Shown here: positions 38,286 through 59,399 of the stretch, in pieces
Layout: every line of letters starts with the position of its first letter
How positions within the stretch are numbered: the first letter of the stretch is position 1
Source: Obrimoposthia wandeli
Lineage: Eukaryota
Direction of reading: 5' to 3'
Assembly: GCA_977020255.1 (NCBI GenBank)
Contig: CDROCS010003502.1
Span: 124,001-188,000, forward strand
DNA: 64,000 nucleotides
Made by a program: the position numbers and the translations under genes
The notes under the pieces: model-generated
What the model saw: only the letters and a program-made list of their open reading frames with translations
What the model was told of the DNA's origin: nothing
Database searches by the model: none

Positions 38286-41279
38286 TATTTAATAATGTTT
38301 TATATGCAATAAGTATTGAAGTACAGCTTTCTTCTATCTTTAATTTAAACCATTTACGTTTTTTTAAAAACATTTTGTCAAATATACGAAATCGAGCTTC
38401 TTGGAATATTTTGTCAACCTTGAATAAATGTATGTGAGAAACGAAAAAATTAATAGTTTAAAGTGAAAGCATCTTGGTGTACCTGCTATCGTTATGAATA
38501 CTTATAACATGCTGCATATTTGGATATAACGTTAAACAAATTAGATTTAATTTTTTCAAAAAAGACGAAATCGGGCTTCAAATGTTAAATGTATACGATT
38601 TGTATGTAGTACCTATTTTGATTTTCAGTTGGTGCTTTGAGACCCACTGAGAATAATTCCACAGAATGCTTATTTTTGCACTTGATCGCTTACTGACATC
38701 AGATTCAACATCCAGGCTGTCTATATACGCGACCTCTTATCAGTAGGATGCTATTGATGCAACTCTCAGGTATTTCTTTATGAGAAATTACGACAACTGT
38801 GATTGTTACTTGTATGATATTATATCTCAAATACAGAGGGTAAAGCTATAAGGTTTGTATGTAGTACCTACTTTGATTTTCTCAAATCTGAGTATACTTA
38901 TGGCTGTCTATATACGCGACCTCTTATAACAATTATAACAATAAGTAAGGACTCAAAACAAAATATATTGAAACAAAGTTGGTACAAGTTAGTCTACTAC
39001 GAGTTTACAAACAGTTAGAAAAGTTGTCTTACTTTTGTGCATGTCCTATGTACTGAGTTCCGTGTTGGGATAGTCAGGTAAATGATATGTGAAATATAAA
39101 AAGGATGGGACCATAAAGTTGTGTTTAAAAAAGTCAATTGATCTTACTTACGATGTCCTCCAATGTCTTGCTTATCACTATGTATCGTATTTTGATTTCC
39201 CCTTGTGATTATCTCGCTTTAATACTGAAAAGCTCGGTGGTGGTTACATGATCCAACGGCCAATGAAGTGAAGTTTTCGGTCAGCGTCTTTCTCCCTTCT
39301 CTCTTCTCAACTATTCCTAAAAACGCCCTCTCTCCTATCTGCATACTGCCTCAACTTGCATGAAAAATTTATAGTCGGTACGTGAGATGACGTTGGTTAG
39401 ATCAATTAATCTTAATTTATTTTCTTAAAATTTTGATTTGATTTAATTATTTACACCATCTTTTTAAACAAAGTATTGGCCGGCAGTATAAATATAGCTA
39501 AATTTGTTTGTTCATTTTTGGATCTTAACAATTTGTAAAATATTTAAATGACTTCTGTTTTCCATTATATTTCTGAATTTTATTTGTTTATAATGTAATG
39601 AAATAATGTAATTATCGTTTGTATTTTCAAGTCATTTGACATTAAATACATCTTTAGAAATTTTCCTCTATTTTATCCTTTCTATTATTTTGTCTTTAGT
39701 ATCCTTGTGTCAATATCCTGTGTACTGATAGTAAATTCACATTTTATTTTATTTATTCTGTGTTGAATTGTGGTATATTTCATATAACAAAAATAAATTT
39801 AACCCATTTAAGATTTGTGTTTTTCAAAGACAAACACCTACACATCGAAACATCTAACCTTCCAATTTTGAGACATCGCTAAGAACTTATGAACTAGTGG
39901 CTTCCATAAGAAGTGTAATACTTTTATTGGTGGAAATAGTTGGGAATTTTAGTATAGAATAATCGAAAGAGAAAAATTTTGATCATTAACCAAGGCACTT
40001 TTAATTAATTTACATAATATATTTGTCTGACGACAATGATTAAAAAGATAAAATAACACATATTTTCAAGCATGAAGCACGATTTTTCTTTAAATTAAAT
40101 TGAAAATACGGACAAAGCACGTTGTCCTTTTAATATAATTGTACAGACAATGTTAGTAAAATTCCCTCGATATAAAAAGCTTCATTTCATGGGTATTTTC
40201 ACGGAAAGTTCAAGTCATTCAATAAATACTGTGTCGATTTGATCTACTGCGATGATGATGACGATGAACAGAACAGAGCAATGTCCACGAGGTAAATTGA
40301 ATTGGGAAATTCTTTCGGGGAATGATGGTGAGCTCATGTAGTTTATCCTGAAAAAATGTCTTATAGAATTTGATTTGAGTAAATTTTGTTTTGCTTTTTA
40401 TCAGATTCGTGGTTTAGCTTTCCTCAATTCAAGATCGAAATTATGTGGCTTGTGCACAAATAAATACGATAAATGAGCTATATAAAATAAACATTACATA
40501 ACAATTAAATGATTTTCATGGAACTATAATAGCAATTATTAGCAGAAACTCTGAAACCTTCCAGCCAGAATAAATTCTCTCATCAGTAGATGATAGAGCC
40601 GATGCTGCATACAATTCTCGCCATTGCAAATGGGTAATAATGTACTCATCAAATTTCGCATTTATGAATAACAATACTAATAAAAACAGTGTTTTTGTAT
40701 TCAGATATGTTGCTGCATATAATTAAATTTTAGAAACCGCAAATCAAGAAGATGATGTGTTTCGTCACCATTTCGGTAATGAGAATTTATTCCAGCTGAA
40801 ATTTCAAGATTAGAGATGGTTAGCTATATTATTGGATATTTGACGATGAAGCGTTTTACTTTTATCGTCTGAGAAGATATAAAATGGATTTGAACAGAAT
40901 ATTCTCAGTATCCTGTATATGCATGCATTTACATATATATAGCATTTTAACTCCCCATCTCCAACTGAGTTCTCGGTTCTCGATTTATGCAAAATGATGC
41001 TTGTTTAACTAAGAAAATATTTCTAATTTCCAATTATATTGTGCTTAAATTTTGTTTAATCAATGACGTTTTCATAATAAAGTGAACTAAAGTGATTAAA
41101 GAGGTACGTTTTGTCGTGAAATTCATAGATATGATACATTAAATTTCATTTGTTTAATAATTTTTACATTTGGTTAAAAACTTTCATTCGCCATATTTTT
41201 GGTAGAAATTATGCTTTAAACCGCTATTGAGGTAAACTTATGTTTATTGACTTTTTGAATAAATTTGATAATGATGATC

Positions 41280-41900: not shown

Positions 41901-43462
41901 TACAATTTAAGAAAAATATCCTTTATGAATATATTCTTAGATGCCTTGACAAGCATATATTCATTACGAATTAAAAGATACGACAGTTCAATTTTCACGG
42001 TTTTATTGAAAATTTATCGTGTAATATTAGCCTTTTGTGCTTGATTTATTGAAAATAGTGTAGCAAGCAAATCAAATAAGAATGTAGCTAAATAAATTCA
42101 AATTGGAAGTTGAAGGAAAAAATCTTAAAACAGAAAGAGAAGAGAATGAAGATATGGAGAATTGGAAAGTAAAGAAAGCAAACATGAAAAATTATAATGA
42201 AAAGGTGGTATAAAGTAGAAGAAATGAGTTTGTTTCATAAACTGGAGTCACAGAATAAATCAGACAGGTTTCAAATTTCATTTATATGATAAATTATTAT
42301 GTTTATTTTATTTAGTTTTGATACTTAAAATTAGTGATTAAAATACTTTTGAACAATTATGTTTCTTGTTTGAAATACTTGAAAAATTAACGATTATTTA
42401 TAAATATAACATTCATTTTCATATTTATGCTGATTTTGATTCTAATGACTGAAATCACATTTTATAAATATAAAAATATTATTAATAAAACAGCTATATG
42501 GATAAAATCAAGAGAATTAAAGAAAATTGAAAATATAACTGATGCTTTTATATTTGGATTTAAGAGTAACATAAATTGAATGTCAGTTAAAATATTTTTA
42601 ATTAAAAAAGTAAAAATAAGAATATTGTTGGTCTACTCGATGAAAATATTACAATCAACGCCATTGATGGCGCTATGTCGAGTTATATTTTCTGAATAAT
42701 TAAATTAAAAACATACGATTTAAATAAATAATCCAACCTCATTCGTCAATTCGTGAGTATTTCCCAATCATTAGTAAACAGGTGCCTCTCGTCTTCATTT
42801 AACCAAGTGAGGAGTGAGTCCCTTGTGGTAAAGGGTCCATAGCTTTTTGGGAGAGAAGGAGTAGTTGGCATGACATCATCCACTCATCGGGGAAATGATT
42901 CAAATCTTTGTCTTCGTCCAACTCGACCAATATGTTGTCACAGATTGGTTGTGCCACAGCATTTGATAGGAGAGTCAGTGTAACTCCATCTCAATCTTCA
43001 ATGAACGGAGTCAAATAATCGTCTTCCTCCTCCTCGAGATCTTCCTATTATCAGCATCCTCAGGGTGGTCAGATTAGCGGTCGTTGAACATGTCTTCGTC
43101 CGGGTCTGGAGTGAAAACTGAGAACTTCAGTTGAGACAATATGATAAATTGCCATTGTTAGTGGCGTTTGATGGAGACGTCAAAGAAATCAAAGAGGTTG
43201 TTTCTCTTTCTCACTAGTGCCACTGATATTGTGGATTTCATCGCTGCTTCCACTGAAGTGGAAATACAGGAAATTTGAGCAGAGTTCTGCCGTGGAGTAC
43301 AGTCTTCTCAATATTCTACCAACCCCTGACTAATTATTTCGATATATTTGGATCTTTATATCCCTTTTACATCTGCGTTTCTTGTTGCACAGGAAAGAAG
43401 TCTTTATACAATTGCTCCTCGAGCTCTGCGTCCAAATTAACGTGGTTGTCGTGGGATATAAT

Positions 43463-44131
43463 AGAAGTGTAAAGTGTCGGTTCTAAAACAATAGCACACA
43501 AAGCCCCCCCCCCCCCGAACAAGGCACAAGGAACAAAGCACATCTGAAATTTGTTTAGTCATACAGATGTGCTTTGTTCCTTGTGCCTTGTTCGGGGGGG
43601 GGGCTTTGTGTGCTATTGTTTTAGAACCGACACTTTACGTCTCGAAATTTGTTTGGTCTTATGCGTCACTTACGATTATGTAGGTTAATATTCTGTAACA
43701 TTTGTATATAGTTCAAANNNNNNNNNNNNNNNNNNNNNNNNNNNNNNNNNNNNNNNNNNNNNNNNNNNNNNNNNNNNNNNNNNNNNNNNNNNNNNNNNNN
43801 NNNNNNNNNNNNNNNNNNNNNNNNNNNNNNNNNNNNNNNNNNNNNNNNNNNNNNNNNNNNNNNNNNNNNNNNNNNNNNNNNNNNNNNNNNNNNNNNNNNN
43901 NNNNAAATATGTAAATTAAAAAATTTAAATTTTAATTCAAATTAAAAAATTAAAATTTTAATTCGAAAATTAAAATTTGAAATTAAACACAATTGACCGT
44001 CCCAAATTTTTATTTGCAACTATTTAATTTACTTAGTACTGCGACCTCATTCCAGGAGTTAGACTGCCCCGCATAACCGGACAGCTATCGCAGTTTTTAT
44101 CATAAGAAACGTTATTGTTTATAGTAGGAGT
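43463..44131 (+). repeat. Left TIR of the Polinton (contains assembly gap 43718-43904)
   Basis: Reverse complement of 57455-58027, with a few substitutions and indels. Confidence 0.95.
44038..44094 (-). ncRNA. Candidate small structured RNA in left TIR (second copy 57492-57548, + strand)
   Basis: GC-rich 57-mer closed by ACTGCGA/TCGCAGT, starting 29 nt after a TATAAACAAT box and followed by AATAAA. Function is inferred only. Confidence 0.35.
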
Positions 44132-44154
44132 TTAGTAAAAAAAAAAGTCTATGT

Positions 44155-44394
44155 TTATACATAATTATATTCATTGTCACAATCCATGCTTTCTTCTTCT
44201 TCTATTTTAATGATTGTTGCAACTTTAGGTTTAAAGTCTCCATTAAACAGGTGATACATATAAAGTTCTTCAATCCTTGAGACAAAAAGTTCTGGTGCAA
44301 CAAATAAGCTAAAGTACTTTTCAGTATACTGGGCCATCAAGGTAGGGCTCAGGTTATCATAGAGAGCTTGCAATTTTTCTTTAGAAGTAGTCAT
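44155..44394 (-). CDS. Polinton hypothetical protein (79 aa from first ATG)
   Basis: Open frame MTTSKEKLQ...; a TATAAACAC variant box lies 40 nt upstream of the ATG. Confidence 0.55.
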   Translation of the reverse strand: MTTSKEKLQALYDNLSPTLMAQYTEKYFSLFVAPELFVSRIEELYMYHLFNGDFKPKVATIIKIEEEESMDCDNEYNYV

Positions 44395-44559
44395 TTGAAA
44401 TAATGAGAAATTGGTTGATTGAAATGTGTTTATATTTATAGAGAATTTGTTAAAATTATCCAATGAAATTATCCAATGAGTAGCTAGTAGGAAGTCAAGA
44501 CATGGTTATGATACATACAATGTATTAAAAATAAACATCAATAAAAATATATACATACT

Positions 44560-44625
44560 ATAGCATTAAAAATATATACATACTATTGCATTAAAAAGAT
44601 ACATACTATCACATTAAAAATAAGA
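44560..44625. repeat. ~25-bp tandem repeat x3 (aaaaatatatacatactatagcatt-like)
   Basis: Directly visible, lying between the polB end and the 79-aa ORF. Confidence 0.8.
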
Positions 44626-44673
44626 GGATATTAGTTAATACTTTCAAGAGGTTACCCCAGATTTTATATACAC

Positions 44674-47600
44674 CTATCTTAGACTATAGTGTCCATATGC
44701 GACGGATTTGTTTTTCTCAAGCCAAACCCTTTTATCGTCATAACACCTTAACGCAATTTTATCATTATACATTGTAAATATACACTGTCTTACCATATAT
44801 TGAATTATTTTTGAGTTTATAAAACTCTTTATCAAATGTAGTAGTACCCTCTGCCCGTTTCCGACTATTGATATCAATATATGTTTTAAATATAGGAGCT
44901 TGATGAAACTTTATTGCTCTATGCACTTGTTTAATTTCTGCACCCAGAAACAAGTAAAATTGTAGTAGTTGTGAGTGTATGATGTAATTATTTTTATCCT
45001 CATGGGTCATCAACAGCTTTGAAGCTTTTGAGCCGGGAGGGATTTCTCTATTAGGCGCAATCGGTAAGTCATCAAGTTTATCATGAATACTGATGGGTAT
45101 GCCTAAATCAATTTCCAACAAGTATCCATGTTCTTTAAGACTCAAGTTCTGCATATTACCGTGAATATCCCTCTTAGTTATAAGCTCAATTATCGCTTCA
45201 AAACCGTCATATACCCATGTAAAATCTGTATGTGGTAACGGTTGACTCAAGGCCCAGCCATATAAGTTATTTATGTCAATATATAGGAGGAATGTTTCAT
45301 CTGTTGTTTTAACGTAATGTTTATTGATGAAAGTCATCCCTCCCCGTATCCCTGCCTCAAACATGTTATACATTTCGGGATCATGCAATAAATCCACATC
45401 ATACTCTAATGTTTTTAATGCGCTAGCCCAACTGAGACCAGGGATACTAAAGAAATTGAGCGCCTCTAGATTATCATCATCCCTTACTTTCTGTCTAAAG
45501 GCCTCAAAAACATCACATAACAGATACACGTCAAGTTTCATATACTCAAGCATGTAGTCTTTAATAGTATTACACCCTAATACGGTCCACATCATTAGGG
45601 CTTCATTATATTGTTGATCAGTGACTCGAGAAGGAAACTCAGATTTAGCGGGTAACTGCGTCTCCATAAGCCTATCAACACCACTAATATATTCATATGG
45701 AAATACCGCCTTACTTGTGGCAATATTAGGGTTTAGGTATTGTGTAGTATAAGGGCAACTTGGCAAGTATGAAACTAAGGATTCAAGACTTGACGTTGTA
45801 AAAAGGTATGAATCAATGAATTTCAATGTCCCCCTCTTCATCTCTATACGGAGGGACATGAACTTTTCACTTGATTTAGGGATAATTGAAAAGGATTTAC
45901 CTTTCAAGTCGGCATATTTTAAAATATGATGTATATCATAACCCATAAGGTTATGAAACACCACAGGTAAAACCGGTCTCTTTGCAAACTTGCGACTTAA
46001 ATTGCATTTGTTGCATGCCGCACCCAAGTATTTACCCGTGATATGATCATGATCTCTAACCATACGATCGTTTAATTTTTTACAAAGATAGCAATTAGTG
46101 CAATCTCTAAAGTTTAACATGTCATTATTAGTAAAAACCATAGGAACATTAATACTATTTACCCAAAAATCTGCCACTTCACCATTTATCAACTCAGTTA
46201 ATTTATCTACAAAGTTTTTAGCACACTGCAGACCGTAATAACTGAAATATTGTATTGAATTATTAGTGTTGTTTTTCAAAATCATCCCTATAGATATTGG
46301 TTTATGAATGTGTTTGAAAGTATTATGTGGCTCGAGTATTGACTCAAAGTCGGCATATACAACAAATGGTGGCGCAATAGATTTAGACCAGTCGGAAAAT
46401 TGACACTTGATCTCTTTAGGCATTGTAAACAAGGTTGTTAAATCTGTATTAATATTACAATGTGCCCTGTGTTTGTCATATGAAATCGTGGTTCGAAATC
46501 CAAAAGACATTTCTCACACCAAAAGAGACGCACATTATATTTTTGAGTATTTAAAAGTCTATTCAGGTTTGTAATCCCTGTATAGTGATAATTACCGCTC
46601 TGTTCCAACAGCAACAAGTTTACTACCTTTTCGCACTGTTTAAGACTCGTTCTATAAATAACATTAACATCTGGGTTTTTAAACACTAGATGACTACTAT
46701 GAGGCTCTACCTTTGTAGGTTTATAGGAGAATACTGTTATCGCTATATTATTGAGTTTTTCAAACGCCTTGATACCGTCTATCCTCATAGGACCAGGCTC
46801 ACATATAAGTTCATTTAAATAATCATTATAGTTTTCAACTCTTTGTCTGTTTCGATTGAAATCTTTATAGTGTAGGATACTGAGAACAGCGTATTTAAAA
46901 CACTGATCATCAGTATTATTTACGTTCACTATAGATAGTGTTTTAGCAAGCGCAACCGGGGTTTTTATAAATGATGATCCTGCTACGTTTGAAAGTGCAG
47001 TAAATTTAAAGGATACCAACAGAATTTTAAATACTGACCATCCCGAACTCATATCCTTATAAATTTCAATTTTATTGTTGAGCTCAACTGTTCTTGTAGT
47101 GATAAAATCTTGTTCAAAAATATTTGCTTTACAGCTTACATGCCATGTTTTATGTTGACCCTCGTTATTGACAAATTCGGTTTCAACACCAAACTGTATT
47201 TTACAGGGACCAAACACATCTATACTGCTAGTAAGTTCAGTTAGCATAGTATCGTTAATGTATAGTTTAAGCATGTTTAATCCACTAACATCAAAAACAA
47301 GGTTTGATTGAATTGCACCTCCTATTTGATTGTTAAAAGTTAATGTATTATCTGAATTAATTGTAACAATATTATCAAAGTCATCATCCGTAATAGTTAG
47401 GAGTGAGTCGAAAAAATCATTTTCTGTTATAAACTCGTCCTGATCTATAAGTTCATCAATATTATTATTATTTAAGATTTCATTAGGGCTTAAAGGCTCA
47501 ATAATTTCTACAACTTCAGGATAAGTATCAATTTCTACAACACTATCCGGTTCCCATGAGTCTACCACATCAAACTCTTCAGTAAAATTATTAGTTTTTG

Positions 47601-48084
47601 CTATTTTATTGTTGTCTATTGTTGGTACTCTCATTACTTTACGTTTGTATGCTGACTTTTTAGACTTAAAATACGTCAGATGATCCTTATGATCATAATA
47701 AAATGTTTGATAGTCAATACAATATAACACATCACAATGTGGACAAATAAAACCGCTTTTAAATTTATAATATTTAAGCATTACACTATGACATTCTATT
47801 CCATGATTAACGTTTGTGCAATACTTGTACAATGTACATAAGTTACTTCCTCCACGAAGTTTAGGGTATACATGGATAATAGCCCCCTCATGTAAAACAT
47901 CACCGATAATAGCTTCCCTTTCAAAGGGCATGCCATTACGGTTAAAATAAATTTGATCAGTCTCAAAGACTTCATATAATTTATTTGCCAGATCTGTAAT
48001 TTTCAGACCTGGACTAATATTAATGGGTTTGCAAGACCCTAATAAATTTGCAAATATTGTTATATCTGCTGGTAGTTTTCTCAA
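44674..48084 (-). pseudogene. polB: Protein-primed family B DNA polymerase (Ubl + terminal-protein region + EndoVII-like + exonuclease + partial palm); frameshifted and internally deleted
   Basis: YADFE, RDHDHITGKYLGAACNKCN, HNLMGYD, YIDINNLYG and KNNSIYGKT motifs, plus C-terminal KIALRCYDDKR..GHY. One-base frameshift at 46502-46505; catalytic YxDTDS motif absent (junction ~44785). Confidence 0.93.
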
Positions 48085-48085
48085 T

Positions 48086-48835
48086 CTACGCAGCTTCTGA
48101 CGAAATCTTTTTCCCTTCCCTACCTTCTGTTTTAAGTTTACTTAAATCAATATTTTGATTTTTTACTTTCTTTAATTGATTAAAATATTTTTTAAACGGG
48201 ATATTTTCAAAACCCGAGTATATCTCATTTACGTTGAAATTTTCTACTGAATTAACAGGTGACCCAACAGGTGTTCCTGGTTTAAAAAGTAAGGGGTAAC
48301 CTCTTGATTTAATTAACTTATTCTGCGACCCCATTCCAGGAGTTAGACTGCCCCGCGTTACCGGGCAGCTATCGCAGTCGGGAGAATAAGATTTTATATC
48401 CCTTATATCCCCAAAAAGTTTATATAAATGAGTATCATATGGAGAATGAGAATGAGAATGAGAATGAGAAGATGAAGAAGAAGAAGGAAGTTGAGAGTGA
48501 GAAGATTTCTCAAGAGATAAAAAAACTTTTGACATTTTCTTCTTTTCATCATCATCATCATATATTGTTGTTGGCATATTCTTCTTTTTCTTCTGCTTTC
48601 GGCTTCTTTTCTTAGTAGGAGCATGGTGCGTTGAAAGCCATGGTGCGATTGATATTGGCAGTGGTGTGACACTCTGTATTGCTAAATTAAATTAAAAATA
48701 ATAATAATAATAATCAAAATTACCTTTCTTCACAGGTGTCGCATCCAAGTCGACATCATCATCATCATCATCATCGACTGCAGGCTTCACTGTCCATTGT
48801 TTATTGCTGTTGTAAGCAAAAATAATTTTTGACAT
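48086..48835 (-). CDS. Spliced Polinton hypothetical protein, 235 aa (exons 48835-48724, 48681-48086; additional 5'-UTR intron 48879-48836); low-complexity, acidic and NLS-like basic tracts
   Basis: A 42-nt GT-AG intron joins MSKIIFAY...PVKK in frame to the 163-aa ORF; a 44-nt gtaagt...ttag intron ends immediately before the ATG. Confidence 0.7.
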
Positions 48836-49260
48836 CTAAAAAAAAATAATAAAAATAAAAATAAAATCAAAATACTTACTTTTCGAAATTGTGAATGAAA
48901 TTGATAAATGACACTACACTGATTGTTTATATATCGTTCACAATCAGTGTAGTTGCTGCCCTAGATGTACACGTCACACATCACGTGTGTACTTACAAAC
49001 TAGGAATGCGTAATAAAGACTCTTTATTCCCTAGTTGCTACACACGTGATCATAAAGGTTAATTACGGTCAATCAATTATGAATATTTTCATAACCGATA
49101 TTCACACCGTTAAACTTTAAATTTTTAAAAATAATTAACACCATTAATTTTCTCTTAATTAGTAGATTTTAAATCTATTTTTTAATTTATCAAAACTCAA
49201 ATTTTTTTTAATTTCGATGGGACAGCTATTTATAAAACAAATACGATTTTGAATACAAAT

Positions 49261-49266
49261 TTTATT
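49261..49266 (-). terminator. Probable polyadenylation signal (AATAAA) for the structural-gene block
   Basis: Lies ~35 nt downstream of the protease stop, at the start of the only long intergenic gap in the block. Confidence 0.45.
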
Positions 49267-49297
49267 ACCAATCAACACAAATAAAAAGGTTTGACAT

Positions 49298-49678
49298 TTA
49301 TATAGTTTGATCATACAACCATAAGATACATAGTGGACCGCAATTAGTAGTCAGTGGGTTTTGAGAACGAATTTTGTTGTAATATACATGTTTTCCTTGA
49401 GACTCTACATGCTTGATAAGTTTTCCCGGATAGTATACTCCAAGAGGGTCATACACATGTACAGAATTCCGTCTCACGAATAACGCAATCCAGTGTTCTC
49501 CAGGAAGATTTGAGGTATGTGTATTGACAATATATCCCCCAGGCGTTAATGTTGGGATTTTTTCCAACGGGTATACACCCTTAAATCGCGGTCCGAGCAG
49601 CAAACTAGTTATTTCATTCACCTGAACAGTACTTGTTGTTAATAAAATCTTAAAACATAAATTAAAAACTCACTTCAT
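49298..49678 (-). CDS. Adenain-like (adenovirus-type) cysteine protease, spliced, 112 aa (exons 49678-49674, 49631-49298)
   Basis: IVNT...PGEHWIAL and Q....NCG motifs. A 42-nt gtgagt...aag intron restores the typical MNT.Q...FKGVYP N-terminus; the ATG overlaps the capsid stop (ATGA). Confidence 0.9.
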
Positions 49679-50898
49679 ACAATCACACGTCGGCCTTTAG
49701 TTATTTCAAACTCAGAATCAAAAATCCCGTAAATCAGTACGTTTGTTGGGACTGTTAATGACTTGTGAAACTTGATGTCAAGGCGTAAATTACCCTGTTT
49801 TGCTAATTGGTTTTGCGTGATATCAAAGTCAGGGGCTAAAACAAACGTGAAAAATGGATATTTGGTTTCGAATTCATCCAGTGATACGCCATTGTTTATA
49901 TTCTTATCCAAATTACCCATATTTCTAATGATAGATTGGACATATGCAAAGGTGGTTTCACCTGTTTCAAAGTTTGTACTGTAATATTCGTTAAAATCAC
50001 TGTTTCTAGCAAGACTGATAGTGTTAACATTAGAATGATCGAATGTTGAAGAGTCTGTAGCACCATTACCGATAAGTTTTTCACCTGCTTGCAACGTAAT
50101 CAACACAAATTTAGGCAATTGTTCATCATCAAACACTTGATCCTTGTAAAAACTCGTAGAACCGATGGCTAAGGTATGATACATTAGCTTTCTGCGAGTA
50201 TAGGGATATACAGCATTCCTAGATTCAAGACCAATATTATGTCCCATTAAAACATCATTCTCAACTCTGACTCTTCTGACTTTAAGTTTAGCTTCAATAA
50301 ATATGATTCGCGCTAGAGTCGTTCCGTAGTTCAGACAAAACATAGATTTATTAGGTACAAGTCTTACCATGATAGACACACCAGGTAAGAGATACTTTGG
50401 TTGCTCAAAAATATCAGATCGAAGAGTCCCACACAAGTCAATTTCTTTTGAGCGAGCAGCCCAACCTTTACGCTTATCATCATCATCATCATAACCTATA
50501 CTCGACAAACAAGTGTCTTTAGTGTCTGTGCTATAGTTTAGTATGGTTTCAATCATAGCTTTTTGTGCATATTGAGGATGGGTTTCTACTACAGTATTAT
50601 TCATTGTTATATCTATGCTTTTAAATAGGGAATGCATCAAGAAATTTGATGGGACCACATTATCTGCAACAGCTATTTCTGTACCATCAGTTTTCGTTAC
50701 TTTAATTTTCACAAACAACAAGGTATCATTCAAATCTAAGTACTCAATATCTGAACCTTGGATTTTAAACAGAATCTCTGATGTTCTTGTTCCGGTAATA
50801 TTGTTTGTTGGATATATATCTTCAAAGCTACCATTATTTACAACTACCTGGGGCAAAGCTCGATCAAAAATACATAATTCAGATTTACCACAAGCCAT
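49675..50898 (-). CDS. Major capsid protein (Polinton PY, double jelly-roll; F54H12.2-like)
   Basis: KSEL..F, EYLDLNDTLL, FLMHSLF and LRSDIFEQPKYLLPGV motifs typical of Maverick MCP; 407 aa. Confidence 0.82.
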   Translation of the reverse strand: MACGKSELCIFDRALPQVVVNNGSFEDIYPTNNITGTRTSEILFKIQGSDIEYLDLNDTLLFVKIKVTKTDGTEIAVADNVVPSNFLMHSLFKSIDITMNNTVVETHPQYAQKAMIETILNYSTDTKDTCLSSIGYDDDDDKRKGWAARSKEIDLCGTLRSDIFEQPKYLLPGVSIMVRLVPNKSMFCLNYGTTLARIIFIEAKLKVRRVRVENDVLMGHNIGLESRNAVYPYTRRKLMYHTLAIGSTSFYKDQVFDDEQLPKFVLITLQAGEKLIGNGATDSSTFDHSNVNTISLARNSDFNEYYSTNFETGETTFAYVQSIIRNMGNLDKNINNGVSLDEFETKYPFFTFVLAPDFDITQNQLAKQGNLRLDIKFHKSLTVPTNVLIYGIFDSEFEITKGRRVIV

Positions 50899-50900
50899 TA

Positions 50901-51308
50901 TTAAGCAAATATTGTACCTTGTTTTCTTCGTTTGTTTATACTAAATGCTTTCTTTCTACCACTACCCTCTTGCTTTTTAGTTTCGGGTTCAACCGTTTGT
51001 GCTGCTTCACTTGCTTTACGTTTACGTCGATTTTTAATAATTTTAACAACTGTACCAAAAGCTTCCTTAGCCTCCGGTATGGCTCCGGCAACTTCCCCTA
51101 GTGCATGTTGTTTAAGCATTGGTAACACAGATTTGTTGTTCATTATTACATCTTGAACTGTTTTAACTCCAACACGACCTAATCTTTTCAGTATAGGGAA
51201 TGCTAACCGCCCCAATGTTTTCAACCATCCCGAACCGTACTGTTTACCTACAAAATATGGTAATTCACCACCTTGTTGAGGTCCACTAAATGTCTCAATT
51301 ATATTCAT
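50901..51308 (-). CDS. Small Polinton core/virion protein (135 aa from first ATG) with QxGG/QxGxG sites and an amphipathic helix
   Basis: QQGG, QYGSG followed by WLKTLGRLAFPILKRLG, QEGSG, basic C-terminus. Confidence 0.7.
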   Translation of the reverse strand: MNIIETFSGPQQGGELPYFVGKQYGSGWLKTLGRLAFPILKRLGRVGVKTVQDVIMNNKSVLPMLKQHALGEVAGAIPEAKEAFGTVVKIIKNRRKRKASEAAQTVEPETKKQEGSGRKKAFSINKRRKQGTIFA

Positions 51309-51344
51309 AACTGTAATGGACAACTATTTTTGAATACAGATTGT

Positions 51345-52481
51345 TTATACCTGATCTATACAACGGACATGTATGGTAAGGGATACTTTTGCATTGTTGG
51401 AAAAACTTATTGGCACACCTGCATCGTTTCTAATATTAATTTCAATGTTTGAGATTACATTTGATGCTAAAGGGATATACATGGGTCTGTATATTGCGAT
51501 ATTAACCGTGTCTCCTGGTGCTTTATTTTTATCTAACCATATAGATTTTAATAAGGGTATCATTTGACCTCCAACGTTTACAGGTTCACACAGACTAGAA
51601 TACAAGTACATGTGATCAAACTCGTAATTTAATCGAGGTAGTCCAGACCCGTTGCCCGTAAATCGTGATTTATCTAACCCTAATACATACATTAAACGTT
51701 GATCAAATCCAATATGCTCAATTCCATTCTTTAATACAAATTTTATTAGCTTATCATTATCATCAATATAAAATCTTTTAAATATGACGTCGCATTTAGA
51801 TTTAATGTATGCTACTAATGCATTTACATTATTATTATTTAAATCTTCTGTAAATACAATTTTCTTGTTGTATGAACCGGTTTTATAATGCATATATTGT
51901 AAATTATGTGCACTGCAATCAGGTCTGATAGACGTTGATCCAAGTAAAACTCCTTTATCATCAGACTCGAAACCTTCTGAAGTTAATGTATTGAAAATGA
52001 ATCCTAATTCATTTTTAGCGTCAACATCCATCTTGATATAGAATTTTTTGTTGTTGACGGATTTTATTAGTACAACATTATCCTTTTTATCAATACCTAC
52101 ACCAACTGTGCTTAAGGAAATAGAAAGCTTTGCAATCTTATCTTTAGACGTGACGGTGAGTTTTGATATTTTATTAATTGTCTTTTTAATAACTTTTGGT
52201 TCTGATTTATCACCATGCAATTGCGGTTCTTTCTTTTCTACTTCTACTTGAGTATGAATTACTGATAAAGATATTTGATCAGTCTGTTGATTGGAGAATT
52301 TAATAGAATAATTAATTTCACTGCCCTTATTTAAAATAACAGGAGTGTTTGTGTACGTAAATTCAGTTAATGCCGCCTCCCATTTACCATTTAACGTAAT
52401 TGGATTCTCCCAATCTACAGTGAATAATGAAGCCATATTATTAGGTTGAGTTTTCGGACAACTATTACTCGGTAAAATCAT
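51345..52481 (-). CDS. Minor capsid protein (penton, Polinton PX)
   Basis: LPSNS......N..S.F.......I.L.G.WE.AL.E N-terminus and YLYSSL.EPV.VG...PLL C-terminal motif. Confidence 0.78.
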   Translation of the reverse strand: MILPSNSCPKTQPNNMASLFTVDWENPITLNGKWEAALTEFTYTNTPVILNKGSEINYSIKFSNQQTDQISLSVIHTQVEVEKKEPQLHGDKSEPKVIKKTINKISKLTVTSKDKIAKLSISLSTVGVGIDKKDNVVLIKSVNNKKFYIKMDVDAKNELGFIFNTLTSEGFESDDKGVLLGSTSIRPDCSAHNLQYMHYKTGSYNKKIVFTEDLNNNNVNALVAYIKSKCDVIFKRFYIDDNDKLIKFVLKNGIEHIGFDQRLMYVLGLDKSRFTGNGSGLPRLNYEFDHMYLYSSLCEPVNVGGQMIPLLKSIWLDKNKAPGDTVNIAIYRPMYIPLASNVISNIEINIRNDAGVPISFSNNAKVSLTIHVRCIDQV

Positions 52482-53512
52482 ATAGAAATCTCTATCTGGC
52501 TTGCTTTGATCCCTGTTGATTCAGAATATCCATGCCACTTTACGAGATATTGTTTATTCTTACCACGGCCTTTAGATTTTACGACTTCTTGGATACGGAA
52601 AAGTGTAGGTTTATCAATTACTTGTAGTTCAGGTTCATAAAATTTCCCTGTTATTACATTACAGTCATCATCAACTATAGAGTACATTACAGGATTTGCA
52701 CGTTTGTCTATTTTCTCTATCCTAAACACTTCATCACTCCAATTCTGATCAAAGTTTTTAATAAAGGGGCTACCACTAAACTTTGATATCCGAACATAAT
52801 CACCAGTCTTATGTTTAGGTTTATTAACTTTATCGACTTGATTACGACTCAACCAAATTTCCATTGCATTTTTATCATTAATATCGACAGGTCTCAATCC
52901 GTCTAAACCTCTATGCTTACTGTGATTGTATGAAGTCATTACTTTTGGTAAAACGTCAACCCATCTTTTATTGCCTTGTGCAATAAAATGTCTTTTTAAT
53001 CGATCTCTCAATGTTCTATTAAACCTTTCAACTAGGGCAGCTTTGAATTGTGAAACTACAGAGTAATGTTCAATATTTAATTTTTTAAATAAACTACCTA
53101 CATTTTTGTTGTAAAACTCTTTACCCTTATCAGTTTGCACATGTATGGGGACAGTTTTATCAGTCATTATACTTAGAGCAGCCTCTATATCCTTACCTGA
53201 TTTAGATTTTACAGGTAATGCACGCGCATACCTTGTAAACACGTCAATACATGTTAAAATATACTTGTTACCATCATTGATACTTGCATATGGTATCATT
53301 TCCATCAAATCGGCCTGCCATAAATCGTTAGGACCACTTGTTCTGTATGCTCGAGTCGGGAACTTCCGCTTCATTGGCTTGTTTAGACTGTATGCTAGCT
53401 GATTGCTCAGCCATTTCTGAGTTTTCTTTTGAGTCGATTGACTTCTTAATGATAGTTTGCCAATGCCGCTGTACCCAGCTGGGTTTTCGGGATCGTACCA
53501 TATCGTTTCCAT
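52478..53512 (-). CDS. int: Retroviral-like DDE integrase with C-terminal chromodomain-like region
   Basis: WQADL, QTDKGKEF and VERFNRTL catalytic triad; C-terminal QYLVKWHGY. Confidence 0.96.
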   Translation of the reverse strand: METIWYDPENPAGYSGIGKLSLRSQSTQKKTQKWLSNQLAYSLNKPMKRKFPTRAYRTSGPNDLWQADLMEMIPYASINDGNKYILTCIDVFTRYARALPVKSKSGKDIEAALSIMTDKTVPIHVQTDKGKEFYNKNVGSLFKKLNIEHYSVVSQFKAALVERFNRTLRDRLKRHFIAQGNKRWVDVLPKVMTSYNHSKHRGLDGLRPVDINDKNAMEIWLSRNQVDKVNKPKHKTGDYVRISKFSGSPFIKNFDQNWSDEVFRIEKIDKRANPVMYSIVDDDCNVITGKFYEPELQVIDKPTLFRIQEVVKSKGRGKNKQYLVKWHGYSESTGIKASQIEISI

Positions 53513-53563
53513 TACAACAATTGAATTTAAAATCGATGTTTGGTATGTTATTACCCATTTTGT

Positions 53564-53893
53564 TTATGAGTTTATCAATTTTGCAATCAAAGGAGATACT
53601 AAAGTAGCAATTATAGGTATTAATGCACCGATAAAACCACCTTTTTGTTTTAGAATTACTCTACGTTTACCAGTTTTACTTTTAGTATTCACTAAATCAA
53701 GTAAAGCTTTTTGATGTTTTCTAAGGTTATGTTTATGATTACCGATTTTTACAGTACCTTTTGTAATATTAAACAAGACTTCAACCAACTTATCAATAAC
53801 AAAGGGTGGAAATGACTTGAGTATACGTTGTCTATATATGCTTGGAGCCTTGATTAAAGCCTGAAAGTAGGGAAGTATAGATTTTGATAACAT
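53564..53893 (-). CDS. Basic virion protein with adenovirus pX/mu-like hydrophobic C-terminus
   Basis: QKGG|FIGALIPIIATLVSPLIAKLINS resembles adenoviral pX (RGG|ILPLLIPLIAAAIG). Confidence 0.65.
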   Translation of the reverse strand: MLSKSILPYFQALIKAPSIYRQRILKSFPPFVIDKLVEVLFNITKGTVKIGNHKHNLRKHQKALLDLVNTKSKTGKRRVILKQKGGFIGALIPIIATLVSPLIAKLINS

Positions 53894-53924
53894 GTTTAAT
53901 GAATTAAACTATTTGCAATATTGT

Positions 53925-54236
53925 TTATAGTTTAATCCATTTACCAACTAGTTTATTTACACGCTTTTTATCCGACTTCTTAACCGACTTTCCAACTGCT
54001 TTCTTAACAGGTTTCTTCTTTAATGGTTTCTTTTTTACAGGTTTTCTCTTTACTGTCTTTACCGATTTCTTTAATGATTCATCGACTACTTTACGCTGAT
54101 GAAGCACTGATTTAATAAGATTTTTAATATGAGCATTCTTCTTTAACATCAATTTGTTATCATTAGCGTGTAATTTATCACCCGGTCTCCATTTAGGTCC
54201 AACTCCACTAGGCATTGTTTCTTTCATAAATGACAT
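53925..54236 (-). CDS. Lysine-rich, probably DNA-condensing core protein (103 aa from first ATG)
   Basis: KKSVKTVKRKPVKKKPLKKKPVKK tract. Confidence 0.6.
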   Translation of the reverse strand: MSFMKETMPSGVGPKWRPGDKLHANDNKLMLKKNAHIKNLIKSVLHQRKVVDESLKKSVKTVKRKPVKKKPLKKKPVKKAVGKSVKKSDKKRVNKLVGKWIKL

Positions 54237-54238
54237 GA

Positions 54239-54886
54239 TTAACAAGTAGATAGGCTTTTCTTTTGTTTATATACAAAATCATTATTGAAAATATCGGTTC
54301 TCACGCGTAAATCGTCTGGACATTCCTGTGTAAAATCTAAAAACAAGTATCCATGAGGGTTAGTTGTTGCATCTTGAAATGCGTCAATCAAATATTGCTT
54401 ATTACAAGGGAAAGCTTGACGGGCAACAAAGTCGATAACCGTTTGATCTCGCGGATTTTTAAATAATACTAGATAATGTACATTTAAATTCCGAGTACGG
54501 TGTTGACCGCCTTGATGAAAAAGATTTTGAGTGATAAAAATCACTGTTACATTTCTATGTCTAGCTATTTTGGTAAACAGGTTATTAAAACCCGACTCTT
54601 TATTTGCTTCATCAAACAAATCATCAATTACAATGACATCTCCTGAATTTAACCTCTCAGACCATTTATTATCAAAACCATTAATAAAATGAATACCCTT
54701 CAATTTACCTAATTCTGTTCGTGTTAGACCAGATTCACCTACACCTCCGTAATGCCAGTATATTCTACTAAACTTTTGATTAAACATGATTTTATTTTGA
54801 AGTAATTTAGTTACAAAATGTGTTTTCCCACTCCCACTAGGTCCTACTATTTGGTAAACCGCGTTATTTTTAAGTTTTATCATCAT
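54239..54886 (-). CDS. A32/FtsK-like genome packaging ATPase
   Basis: Walker A GPSGSGKT, Walker B VIVIDDL, RH..........TQN, and R...LN..Y.VLFKNPRD. Confidence 0.95.
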   Translation of the reverse strand: MMIKLKNNAVYQIVGPSGSGKTHFVTKLLQNKIMFNQKFSRIYWHYGGVGESGLTRTELGKLKGIHFINGFDNKWSERLNSGDVIVIDDLFDEANKESGFNNLFTKIARHRNVTVIFITQNLFHQGGQHRTRNLNVHYLVLFKNPRDQTVIDFVARQAFPCNKQYLIDAFQDATTNPHGYLFLDFTQECPDDLRVRTDIFNNDFVYKQKKSLSTC

Positions 54887-54916
54887 CAATAATAATAAAT
54901 CAAAAGAAACGATTGT

Positions 54917-55183
54917 TTATATACGTTTTATTAATATATACAACAACAGAGAATTAAAAATTGATGCAGAAAAGGTTATATACATCATGTTTGAACGATT
55001 AATTTGAACAAATTTTTCAAAATCCTTAATCCGTTTGATATCTCTATAGACATGGGTGCAAACAATTTCCTTTATATTATTACGAGAAAGTCCATCAAAA
55101 CTAGAAAAGTATTGAACTCCATTTATTGTTCCGTTTATAATTTCCTCGACTGCATCATCAACTAATTTATCGTTTTCATCCAT
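54917..55183 (-). CDS. Polinton hypothetical protein (88 aa, hydrophobic C-terminus)
   Basis: Tightly packed ORF with a TATAAACAAT box 31 nt upstream. Confidence 0.6.
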   Translation of the reverse strand: MDENDKLVDDAVEEIINGTINGVQYFSSFDGLSRNNIKEIVCTHVYRDIKRIKDFEKFVQINRSNMMYITFSASIFNSLLLYILIKRI

Positions 55184-55201
55184 TTATATAAATCATAAAT
55201 T

Positions 55202-56101
55202 TCAATTGTTTATACCATGAAATTTTACATTTCTTACTCTCCGTTCGATCAGACATCTGCATACTGGACATGAATGTAACATTCTAGAACATGATATACA
55301 TGTATTTACATGTCCACAAGGGAGAAATACTACTTCAATATGATTATTTAAACATACTACACATTCGGGTACCTTTAAAATGTATGAAAGTATATTTATA
55401 TATTGTTTTTCAGGTTTCATTTCTAAATTAGATAAATCACAAAGCAATTCAAATAGTGAATTGTATTCACCATATCGCATCATTTTATATTTTAAAACAG
55501 ATTTTATTCTATCTTTTGTGAAAAACTTTTTCAAATATCTGATTTGGTTTGTATCCATCAACATATCGAATTTCTCGATAGTCAATGGATATTCAATTAT
55601 ACAATCTGTTTCGATTTTCTCAATAACATTAGCCTCATTATAGGGTCCTAAACATTTTGAATAGCATATATCAGGTAATTTTATATCAATATCTGATACA
55701 TGTACTTTTCCAATCAATGGTGATGTATCAAAATCGATTTTCTTGTTCATAGTTTCAATTATTGATACATTTGAAACATTTAACTTTAAAAGAAATGGAC
55801 ATGTAGGAAAAAATTTCATATGTTGCTTCATTGGTTTAAGATACCATTCCCATTCGGATAACGCACCTTGACAGTATATACATTTTACTTTATCGGTTGA
55901 ATCATCATCATGTTTATAAAATCCGGCTTTAGCTAAATCATTTACAGATTGTTTCCCTTTAAAATTTATAATTAATGATCTTAATCTTTCACTTTCACGT
56001 CTATATTTCCAGTGTAAAACTTTCATTCTAGAATAACCTACTTTTCGTCTAACTAAAACATCATCAACAGTTGTATAATGAAGTATATAATCAACTAGCA
56101 T
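55202..56101 (-). CDS. iap: Inhibitor of apoptosis (single BIR + C-terminal RING)
   Basis: BIR: R..S...LAKAGFY...C-x2-C-x16-H-x6-C. RING: CVVC...FLPCGH..C..C......CPVCR. Confidence 0.93.
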   Translation of the reverse strand: MLVDYILHYTTVDDVLVRRKVGYSRMKVLHWKYRRESERLRSLIINFKGKQSVNDLAKAGFYKHDDDSTDKVKCIYCQGALSEWEWYLKPMKQHMKFFPTCPFLLKLNVSNVSIIETMNKKIDFDTSPLIGKVHVSDIDIKLPDICYSKCLGPYNEANVIEKIETDCIIEYPLTIEKFDMLMDTNQIRYLKKFFTKDRIKSVLKYKMMRYGEYNSLFELLCDLSNLEMKPEKQYINILSYILKVPECVVCLNNHIEVVFLPCGHVNTCISCSRMLHSCPVCRCLIERRVRNVKFHGINN

Positions 56102-56142
56102 TTCAAATCATGTAAGAATAAAATTCAACTAAAATTTATTGT

Positions 56143-56635
56143 TTATATCAAAAGTAAAATATCAGTTATTATCAAAGTCACATCAAAGTGATAATCCAAA
56201 TCCTTGAGACCGAGTATGACCACTTTCCCGCTTGCAAATATGTTGACGCATAGAGGATTGTGTTTTGTAAACCTTAAAGCAGGAAACAACTCAGGTTCGA
56301 ACATGCACGCAGCTCCACACTTTTGAGACAACTTGTATAGGTTCACCTTCTTACCTAAATCGACAGTAACCGTTACTGATTGAATACGATCAATCTTTAT
56401 TCTAAATGGACACTTGAGCAAAGTTGTAGTAATAGGTTTCTTGCAACCCATTATCCTGCATGCTCCTAATAATAACTAACTAACTAACTAACATAAAAAA
56501 CATACCTGAACGGAAGATTATAAGGGTATAATCCTTACACCTGTGCACGTACTGACATGGTTTCCCGGTTTTGAAGGGTAAGTGACTGATGTCTCCTTTA
56601 ACTTTACCTTTATAATTAATATTTGCAAGATTCAT
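56143..56635 (-). CDS. TATA-binding-protein-like protein, 150 aa, spliced (exons 56635-56506, 56465-56143)
   Basis: Repeat 2: VTVDLGKKVNL...FEPELFPAL...P...NIFASGKVVILGLK. Repeat 1: LANI...LIIFRSGACRIMGCK, completed by removing a 40-nt gtatgt...ttag intron. Confidence 0.85.
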
Positions 56636-56758
56636 GATTGAATTGATGGAAATAACCCAATCTATATATAAAATTTTTAAGCTAAAGATTATCCAATCAG
56701 AATCGAGTATGATATATATATAAGCTACCACTTTTGGTATAGAATTCATTATTTTGAT

Positions 56759-57406
56759 ATGAACTCTAAACAAACTAAATCTCTTAAGTTCGAGAAGCCA
56801 CCACCAACAAGGCTTACAGACACAGATGTGGATACCGATGATGATGATGTAGTTTTTATATCAAAACCAAAGAAGCAAACTATGACAAGCAACAACCATA
56901 AACAAACCAAGACTATCAAGATTGAGAAGCAAGCAACAAATGAGGATCTCTTTATTGATGATATAGTCTCTACACCCAAACATAAGAAACCGTTCAACAA
57001 TAAACCATCAGATGTAATATTTGAGTCTAACGATTTGAAGTACACCAAGCCGGTTATGTTTTATAACTGGCAAATGAATTTTGAAGACTCAATCATATAT
57101 GGATTCATGTTTCCGGTGGCTCTGAATAAGTCAAAATACGATTTCAAGATACATAGATTAAATCCGTCAGATATTGATGATCTTAACAAAACTTTTGAGT
57201 CGATGCATCTCAACATTATAGTTGGGAATCATATAATAATTCGAGCTGATCCTAATCTTTTCAAGCGAGATCACGACTTTAATGTTGACAATATGGGAAC
57301 TGGACTCAAGTGGATGATCGTCATTTCAATACAGGGATACAAAATCAACTGTACAGGTCTTCATAAACCAATCTGGAAAATTACTGATGGACAAGTTCGC
57401 TTATAA
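56759..57406 (+). CDS. Polinton hypothetical protein (215 aa), transcribed divergently from the TBP-like gene
   Basis: Clean ATG-stop ORF with a disordered N-half and a beta-rich C-half. Confidence 0.75.
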   Translation: MNSKQTKSLKFEKPPPTRLTDTDVDTDDDDVVFISKPKKQTMTSNNHKQTKTIKIEKQATNEDLFIDDIVSTPKHKKPFNNKPSDVIFESNDLKYTKPVMFYNWQMNFEDSIIYGFMFPVALNKSKYDFKIHRLNPSDIDDLNKTFESMHLNIIVGNHIIIRADPNLFKRDHDFNVDNMGTGLKWMIVISIQGYKINCTGLHKPIWKITDGQVRL

Positions 57407-57454
57407 TTGTACTAATATATATTTATCGATGTTACTTTGCTTTCTTCAATATAG

Positions 57455-58027
57455 ACTCCTACTATAAACAATAACGTTTCTTAAGATAAAAACTGCGATA
57501 GCTGTCCGGTTATGCGGGGCAGTCTAACTCCTGGAATGAGGTCGCAGTACTAAGTAAATTAAATAGTTGCAAATAAAAATTTGGGACGGTCAATTGTGTT
57601 TAATTTCAAAATTTTAATTTTTAATTTTCATATTTAATTTTCGAATTAAAATTTTAATTTTTTAATTTTCATATTTAATTTGAATTAAAATTTAAATTTT
57701 TTAATTTCCATATTTAATTTTTTAATTTTTAAATTTTAAATTTTAAATTTTTAAATTTTGAATATTTAAATTTTTGAACTATATACTTAATGTTACAAAA
57801 TATTAACCTACATAATCGTAAGTGACGCATAAGACCAAACAAATTTCGAGACGTAAAGTGTCGGTTCTAAAACAATAGCACACAAAGCCCCCCCCCCGAA
57901 CAAGGCACAAGGAACAAAGCACATCTGTATGACTAAACAAATTTCAGATGTGCTTTGTTCCTTGTGCCTTGTTCGGGGGGGGGGGGCTTTGTGTGCTATT
58001 GTTTTAGAACCGACACTTTACACTTCT
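57455..58027 (-). repeat. Right TIR of the Polinton (573 bp)
   Basis: Reverse complement of 43463-44131. Confidence 0.95.
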
Positions 58028-59399
58028 TATAATGATGGGAAAATAATAATGAAAATAATATAATTATCGTAATTATTTATCGTCCAATAGAAACAGGGTA
58101 TTCAATTTTAAAAAAGGGGGGGTGAGTAGAAGAAATAGTAGGTAAATGAAAAAGAATTTGTATGTCTTGAAAAGGGAAAAATATTTTAAAAGCCATAGCA
58201 ATTTTGTATATGAATATAAAAAGATTCTCACGATTCTTACTATCACATCATATATTGCTAGGCCCTGCGTGGTCTCTGTGCGAAGCGATAGCAGTTAGAG
58301 TGCGGTTTTTGGGTGCTTTTAAAACTCTCAGATGGTATAACAATGCATTTTCGTTCTGAGTAGGGTAGGGGCTCAGATGTTTTTAATTCTTTGTAAAAAA
58401 CACTTAGACCTTACATTTTTGCATATAATACGTTTTATAAAGTCTCGTATAAGGTACAATCGGTAAACGTGAGGACTTATATAGTATCACCAAGATATGT
58501 GGGAAATCTCAGAAGTTAGCCTTTAAACTGCTCTTATGCGGTAGATAAATGTTTGTATTTCTCAGTTTAAAAATTCTCAATGTATATATTTTACATACAA
58601 GGATGAAATTTCACTCCATACACATGTGCATATAGACACATGCATATACACACACCTACGGTTTTAAAGGACATATGTGTGCCTTCTCCCTATTCCACTA
58701 AGATGAGTTAGATTAGACAGGACACATCATCTACTGAAGGTCTCGAGTCTAGCGGTGGTTGTTTTTAACTTAGTTTAGAGTTTGGGTAGATATTTTGAGG
58801 TTGATCTTAGTTTATGTTGTTTTGGTTGATAATTAGGTCTGATCATGGTACGGGATATGTTGATAATTAATTGCGGACTGAGCATTTGAATGAATTTGAT
58901 TTGGCCACTTAGTCTTGACGAATATATAATGTACTTTGAGTGCTTCGTATTTTATGTACGTATTTAATAAGCAGATATGAATGAGTTGTTCCTAGTTCAA
59001 ATTTCAATTTGTTTAATTTCATTTTCTCACTCATAATGGTAACTTTTTAACATGTTTTTTTGGATAGATGAGTAAGTGTTGTTCTTTATATTTCTCATAT
59101 TTCAAACCGACAACACGTTTATTTAAAACAAAATACCTTTATAAATAACTTAAATGCATAGGGTTACCATCCGAACACATTTCAACAATTTCATTGGTTA
59201 GTACCATTGTAACATTGTCCATCTTTTGTGACATCACAAAGTCACACCAGCGCTAAATCGGTTAAAATAAATTTTGAATTAACTTCTCATCCCAATATCA
59301 TTTCTCTTTTAATACGTTGCTATCTTTCTTATTAAATAGAAATAAAGAAATAAAGAAAAATCAACGATGAGTTCAGAACTTTTATTGTACTGCTGAAAT

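Follow-up and report, generated by a model that had tools for sequence, protein, structure and literature searches.

A 56-nt motif in the polB frame of a Polinton family, with copies in the TIRs, as a candidate mRNA structure with long-range pairing

Related systems and the element in the window

Polinton/Maverick elements (adintovirus, MELD viruses) carry a protein-primed polymerase B (pPolB), an rve integrase, an ATPase, a capsid protein, a protease and an IAP, and are bounded by TIRs and a 6-bp target duplication (TSD), all of which are shared by the element studied here (PMC8502044, PMC11071308). The parts of these two papers considered here give a TP-vOTU-polymerase order and make no mention of a structured RNA, whereas in our element a spliced N-terminal extension of polB bears a 56-nt motif with a predicted fold. 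Literature searches on Polinton and adintovirus RNA, promoters and TIRs listed no paper that describes a structured RNA in these elements, though supplements may bear on this. In tombusvirids and BYDV, according to the part of the source considered here, a local structure in the 5' polymerase frame, with a neighbouring segment that pairs with the 3' UTR 3.5-4 kb away, sets polymerase output, its site of action being either a readthrough stop or slippery heptamer (PMC5893793). The polB gene in the window (the whole 64-kb stretch of DNA that was analysed) is similar in that a structure and a neighbouring arm are predicted, the latter to pair with the 3' UTR, but its frame is open and it lies in a DNA element rather than an RNA virus. 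By eye, no readthrough stop or slippery heptamer is conserved next to the motif, where the frame is open and the upstream 45 nt are hypervariable. Since the recoding site is absent, the locus is not a member of the recoding LDRI class.

Adenovirus VA RNA is about 160 nt long, GC-rich and paired at its ends, and is transcribed by Pol III from internal A and B boxes. The motif resembles it as a short, GC-rich structured unit with paired ends, present in several copies in a relative of adenoviruses, but is only 56 nt long, and its TIR copies lie amid a Pol II-type TATA word and AATAAA. It also recalls tRNA-like RNAs and small ribozymes in its compact three-way junction and in a 7-bp closing stem that, like that of tRNA, has UAGC after it; on the other hand, it has no anticodon arm, no T-loop and no Rfam 15 match above noise, and no catalytic core was found by eye. 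No Rfam covariance model matched at its gathering score (the best near the motif was vault, E 8.9, on the wrong strand), and ARAGORN returned no tRNA. Readings as a hammerhead, twister, HDV-like, hairpin or pistol ribozyme, or as a tRNA, were rejected on the Rfam result and by eye against the cores of these RNAs.

The element is 14.6 kb long (Table 1). Its Pfam gene set comprises pPolB (PF03175, E 1.5e-23), an rve integrase (PF00665, E 2.6e-12), an A32-like packaging ATPase (Pox_A32, E 4.7e-07, above the curated cut-off), a DJR capsid (DJR-like, 8e-4) and an adenain-like cysteine protease (Peptidase_C5, 7e-3), the last two below the curated cut-offs; IAP and TBP-like genes are also carried. 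These genes, together with the long TIRs, AG...CT ends and target duplication, place it among the Polintons. Each TIR terminus is a near-perfect palindrome of about 170 nt (43469-43638 and 57853-58021). Elsewhere in the window, 36211-38373 on the minus strand holds ORFs resembling, by eye on their translations, a non-LTR retrotransposon reverse transcriptase, and 21231-21846, also on the minus strand, holds exon-like fragments that we take to resemble a host CDK-family kinase. Four sequencing runs were read as DNA, since they show flat depth and no splice joints.

The host genome (1.35 Gb) contains many Polinton families, at least five of them large, and nesting of families in one another is frequent (e.g. 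L150+L151, L261+L262, L288). A first-look count gave 43,813 capsid candidates in this genome, and we found 172 capsid relatives; viral contigs yielded none.

Motif copies, the polB frame and promoter words

Table 1. Features of the Polinton locus, in window positions.
Feature	Position	Strand	Remarks
Polinton/Maverick element	43463..58027	.	AG...CT ends, ~650-nt TIRs, 6-bp TSD, Pfam gene content
6-bp target duplication TATAAT	43457-43462 and 58028-58033		flanks the Polinton
polB gene	44674..48931	-	TATAAACA at 48924-48931, predicted ATG at 48835, stop at 44674-44676
Predicted polB introns	48836-48879, 48682-48723	-	from splice words only
Internal 56-nt motif copy	48323..48378	-	within the N-terminal coding part of polB; predicted to fold as a three-way junction (-26.9 kcal/mol)
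Left TIR motif copy	44039..44094	-	outward-pointing; TATAAACA 29 nt upstream (44116-44123); AATAAA at 44009-44014
Right TIR motif copy	57492..57547	+	outward-pointing; TATAAACA at 57463-57470; AATAAA at 57572-57577
Arm A	48293..48321	-	core of 15 nt at 48293-48307 and a further helix of 6-7 nt; complementary to arm B
Arm B	44630..44658	-	non-coding; 16-44 nt past the polB stop; predicted to pair with arm A
TATAAG of the first-pass annotation	48402..48407	-	not conserved; Asp-Ile codons

A model search found exactly three copies of the motif in the window, with the TIR copies at the TIR inner ends and polB flanked by two direct copies. The 52/56 match between the internal and left TIR copies, noted in the first-pass annotation, is real, with differences at motif positions 14, 20, 22 and 48, two of which are synonymous in the polB frame. 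Two of the differences had been said to strengthen predicted pairing; one of these, GAGG to GGGG, is register-dependent (U-A against U-G in the CUC/GRG register), and GGGG is also found in older TIR copies (85 matches). The motif is not a chance likeness: one motif pattern gave 3,244 matches in the host genome and its reversed control none, a second pattern gave 4,024 with at most three mismatches, and 2,167 TIR-type ends were counted. As there are about three motif copies per element, we estimate that the family has more than 1,000 elements.

The internal copy is kept in related elements. It is fixed in the family and is found in older lineages as well, so that it is not a recent duplication peculiar to this insertion; in an older lineage with about 85-90% identity, both the internal and the TIR copies are present. 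The 81 nt around the internal copy are identical in the best 40 of 894 genome candidates, and short-read contigs agree with this sequence, no more than two variants inside the motif exceeding 2%, of which one is the TIR state and the other a CpG site. The internal copy is likely the original, as judged from the peptide FGDIxD, which spans the edge of the homology, and the TIR copies are likely captured duplicates of it. The motif was absent from four other Polinton families and 19 metagenome contigs. All 49 metagenome loci were searched by nhmmer and 19 of the 49 by further profile and covariance searches, which, in families B to E and the metagenome contigs, returned nothing below E 0.28 and 0.77, respectively. 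Neither viral contigs nor prokaryote genomes contained a match to the motif.

The motif had been placed in a 235-aa ORF upstream of polB. The peptide DCDSCPVTRGSLTPGMGSQ is indeed encoded on the minus strand, and the ORF has 235 aa if the predicted GT-AG intron at 48682-48723 is removed; it is, however, not a separate gene but the 5' end of polB, severed by a frame break in the window copy. This copy is broken near 48,120, where it differs from 14 of the 30 other copies (those compared that far), and again near 46,500, and about 0.6 kb is missing from it around 44,780. The motif frame remains open beyond the window's stop in 19 of the 30 other copies, and in 7 it reaches the locus end, 523 codons along, the longest open frame of 851 codons reaching the Pfam DNA_pol_B_2 region. 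None of the 16 longer copies tested is open as far as the polB stop, as is expected of decayed or error-bearing copies. Just 3' of the motif, lineage-level change falls mostly at third positions (9/46 vs 3/94), and we therefore take the frame downstream of the motif to be coding.

The motif thus lies about 140 codons from the predicted ATG, inside an N-terminal extension that is spliced and of low complexity and that also carries a ubiquitin-like segment, the latter only as a lead. This segment ends in LRGG and is followed by a zinc-finger-like stretch (47860-48070 and 47690-47800, minus strand); an Atlas lead connects it to ubiquitin-L40e clusters with a score below 0.9. A weak search found no longer protein relatives for the N-terminal 300 residues of polB. 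The part of the extension at 48379-48900 (minus strand) is hypervariable across lineages, with mostly non-synonymous changes (29 vs 6) and frame-keeping indels.

The word TATAAACA is enriched in the window (21 occurrences vs 8.8 expected); the element contains 14 of these sites, without exception on gene strands, and one lies 31-46 nt ahead of each of seven ORFs. Between 44116 and 57470 it stands ahead of most genes, often overlapping the preceding stop, and it is repeated in metagenome relatives too; the TBP-like protein of the element (56143-56749, likely spliced) may read it. The TIR motif copies, which also lie downstream of the terminal genes of the element, start 28-29 nt after a TATAAACA in all lineages seen and end 25 nt before AATAAA. 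On account of these two signals they look like short transcription units. A 13-aa micro-ORF beginning at an ATG in the TIR loop was noted, without support.

The TATAAG pointed out in the first-pass annotation does begin 29 nt upstream of the internal copy but is not conserved. Among 30 young copies the hexamer at this position is TATAAG in 13, CATAAG in 14, deleted in 2 and otherwise in 1, and among 43 copies of the older lineage it is TATTAA in 14, TATAAA in 10 and CATAAA in 8, all encoding Asp-Ile, and never TATAAG.

Conservation, folding and long-range complementarity

We assessed conservation on 73 distinct internal copies, which had been selected with patterns lying outside the motif (from 80, five with a replaced or rearranged motif and two duplicates were dropped), and regarded a variant as lineage-level when it was common to at least 10 copies, leaving out CpG sites. 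None of the 46 non-CpG motif sites carries such a variant, compared with 31/90 upstream and 16/167 downstream (p 0.0002 vs all flanks, p 0.017 vs the 3' side), and variation returns within 2-3 nt of both motif edges. Relative to the rest of polB the invariance is not significant (p 0.17; 19% of 56-nt windows are likewise invariant), and at a threshold of four copies the motif is no quieter than polB, because GC-rich sites decay repeatedly. Synonymous-site conservation, which the first-pass annotation had suggested checking, came to 0/15 lineage changes in the motif vs 18/85 in the flanks (p 0.04). The GC3 of the motif (11/18 vs 24%, p 0.001) is the maximum of the element.

Synonymous recodings folded as well as the motif in 2/3000 cases when drawn by codon usage, 50/3000 when drawn uniformly and 93/3000 when GC-matched (p 0.0007 to 0.03), and 1 of 30 control windows reached p 0.01 in this test. 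Folding favours the minus over the plus strand (z -3.3 and -2.1 vs -2.2 and -1.1); 17 of 984 windows of the element have a z below the motif's -3.27, which weakens to -0.9 on shifting the folded segment by 3-4 nt. In 115 TIR contexts, a biased sample since it was drawn partly by motif patterns, there are three lineage-level changes, each of which the sense strand can accommodate: C-G to U-G at one site, U-G to U-A at another, and at the third, ordered by private decay, a progression from a closing-stem mismatch, found in the oldest TIR copies, through U-G to U-A as the copies become younger. Changes disrupting the main stem are common to two old internal copies. Two-sided covariation was found in 0 of 19 pairs among 19 copies, where 120/500 shuffles scored as high and low diversity leaves low power. 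Its fixation across lineages, its invariance between variable flanks and its fold-favouring codons give moderate support to the suggestion that the motif is under selection and is neither a chance likeness nor a recent private duplication. That it is conserved as an RNA structure likewise has moderate support and is not proven.

The 29 bases just 3' of the motif (arm A) are complementary to a site just past the polB stop (arm B), about 4.25 kb away in most copies and 3.65 kb in the window copy. The core at 48293-48307, 16 nt after the motif, is the exact 15-nt complement of 44644-44658, 16-30 nt past the stop, a length of perfect complement matched anywhere on the sense strand by 6 of 1,000 shuffles, and a second helix of 6-7 bp follows after a small loop. 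The two variable pairs of this second helix are both kept in 42 of the 44 elements that hold both arms, with a mismatch in the other two; the paired states are U-A/U-A in 10, U-A/U-G in 24, U-A/C-G in 2 and U-G/C-G in 6, which reflect about three independent changes. The elements were chosen partly by arm variant, and many of the 80 fetched had only one arm. The commonest state (U-A/U-G) pairs on the sense strand only, with a mismatch on the other strand. The arm duplex, at -36.5 kcal/mol, fails to beat a reversed control (-41.8 kcal/mol); the joint fold of junction and end-to-5' duplex is predicted at -62 kcal/mol. In older lineages AATAAA lies close after arm B (24/27 and 14/37 copies by arm state), in the young lineage it is mostly lost (1/12), and in the window copy the next AATAAA after arm B is the one in the TIR, beyond the motif. 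Intron skipping, with arm B as a branch point before an acceptor, was rejected because the AG is not conserved and its place is taken by AATAAA in older lineages.

We also looked for such complementarity in other Polinton families. In family B, a 55-nt stretch of the polB 3' UTR complements the 5' CDS (score 67 vs at most 39, -53 kcal/mol), and one metagenome contig has a 27-nt complement from the last polB codons; families C, D and E showed no polB arm complement, and in family E the TIR inner ends hold blocks complementary to the element's own TBP-like gene. As further observations, the family B complement between CDS and 3' UTR spans 55-70 nt with G-C/G-U variants (L097+L098, 5675-5729 and 8981-9035), and a second inverted repeat of 24 nt lies inside the polB CDS of this family. 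The family E blocks are of 15-23 nt at both TIR inner ends (e.g. G000:C17:567500-587499, L251+L252), and the TIR tandem unit seems derived from this segment of the TBP-like gene; family E numbers about 2,200 copies. Metagenome relatives add echoes of 25-29 nt of their own coding sequence, at 22-112 and 5112-5136 and at 2934 and 9191 in L048 and at 2863-2889 and 6331-6357 in L050; they comprise tandem repeats complementary to the integrase gene and a polB end that recurs or is inverted elsewhere. For family B, a three-way junction ahead of the arm was discarded, as it was not significant (130/1,500) and is disrupted by variants.

Alternative explanations and a possible role in polymerase control

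The likeness between the copies could be a neutral relic, a piece of a polB exon having been copied to the TIR in a rearrangement, with identity kept by recency, peptide constraint or gene conversion and with fold and arm as by-products. We consider this, the main rival to the reading preferred below, rather doubtful. It agrees with the TIR copies varying between lineages at 3/57 sites, not far below their flanks (5/21 in the spacer), with the two synonymous differences, with the absence of two-sided covariation, and with the fact that capture does occur, the TIRs of another family holding fragments of that family's TBP-like gene, but it leaves unexplained the high GC3, the lack of synonymous lineage changes and the paired variants in arms 4.25 kb apart. 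An origin as small-RNA genes similar to VA RNA, in which every copy would have its own transcript from the first A of the motif and the internal transcript would end at a T-run at +91 and act in trans as a guide antisense to the polB 3' UTR, is unlikely. An A-box-like word at +8, the T-run directly after arm A (four bases on), the constant TATAAACA ahead of the TIR copies and the AT-rich hexamer at -29 of the internal copy would suit such genes; however, judged against the box consensus, canonical internal boxes were not found (the A-like and B-like boxes have two mismatches each and are just 23 nt apart; T-runs lie at +91 and +120), the hexamer at -29 of the internal copy is free to vary and missing from 2/30 copies, neither Rfam nor tRNA searches gave a match, and the TIR tails lack a good pairing partner (best -23 kcal/mol).

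It is quite improbable that the motif acts as a DNA-level site, be it for protein binding, as a single-stranded hairpin in strand-displacement replication or for recombination of the direct repeats flanking polB. The location of copies at the TIR inner ends, polB lying between two direct copies, and tandem DNA words in the TIRs of other families point that way, whereas motif and arms alike accept variants as G-U pairs on the transcript strand, and the sole joints between both copies in DNA contigs are low-depth reads that are best explained as TIR reads. Least credible, and very improbable, is the proposal of the first-pass annotation that the motif is the leader of a shorter polB transcript starting at TATAAG inside an upstream gene: the spacing of 29 nt is that of the TIR TATA, and TATAAA stands there in 10/43 older copies, but the motif lies in the polB frame, which is continuous with upstream exons whose indels, in the copies listed, mostly add up to multiples of three, a separate TATAAACA lies upstream for polB at 48931, and the hexamer varies as synonymous Asp-Ile codons.

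The reading we prefer, tentatively and as somewhat short of an even chance, is that the motif in the polB frame would act as an mRNA three-way junction which, with the adjoining arm paired to the polB 3' UTR, limits polymerase output, the TIR copies being derived. The polB message would fold in vivo into the junction and an end-to-5' duplex, and ribosomes would have to unwind this structure about 140 codons into the frame. Unwinding could throttle or time polymerase synthesis; alternatively, the duplex could protect the 3' end or set mRNA stability. In what is the weakest step, the TIR copies, between TATAAACA and AATAAA, might be expressed as short transcripts, or as 3' UTR elements, in imitation of the polB site, and these RNAs might conceivably decoy whatever binds the junction.

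A broader proposal, which we regard as decidedly doubtful, is that Polintons regulate their own polymerase by RNA, through a module in the polB frame with an arm antisense to the 3' UTR and decoy RNAs from the TIRs, sister families having arrived, from unrelated sequence, at equivalent echoes antisense to polB or TBP. The control of Polinton expression is poorly described, and a family of more than 1,000 copies must limit its polymerase. If the proposed mechanism is true, a DNA element would be using a long-range RNA switch like that of plant viruses, which would represent a new layer of control.
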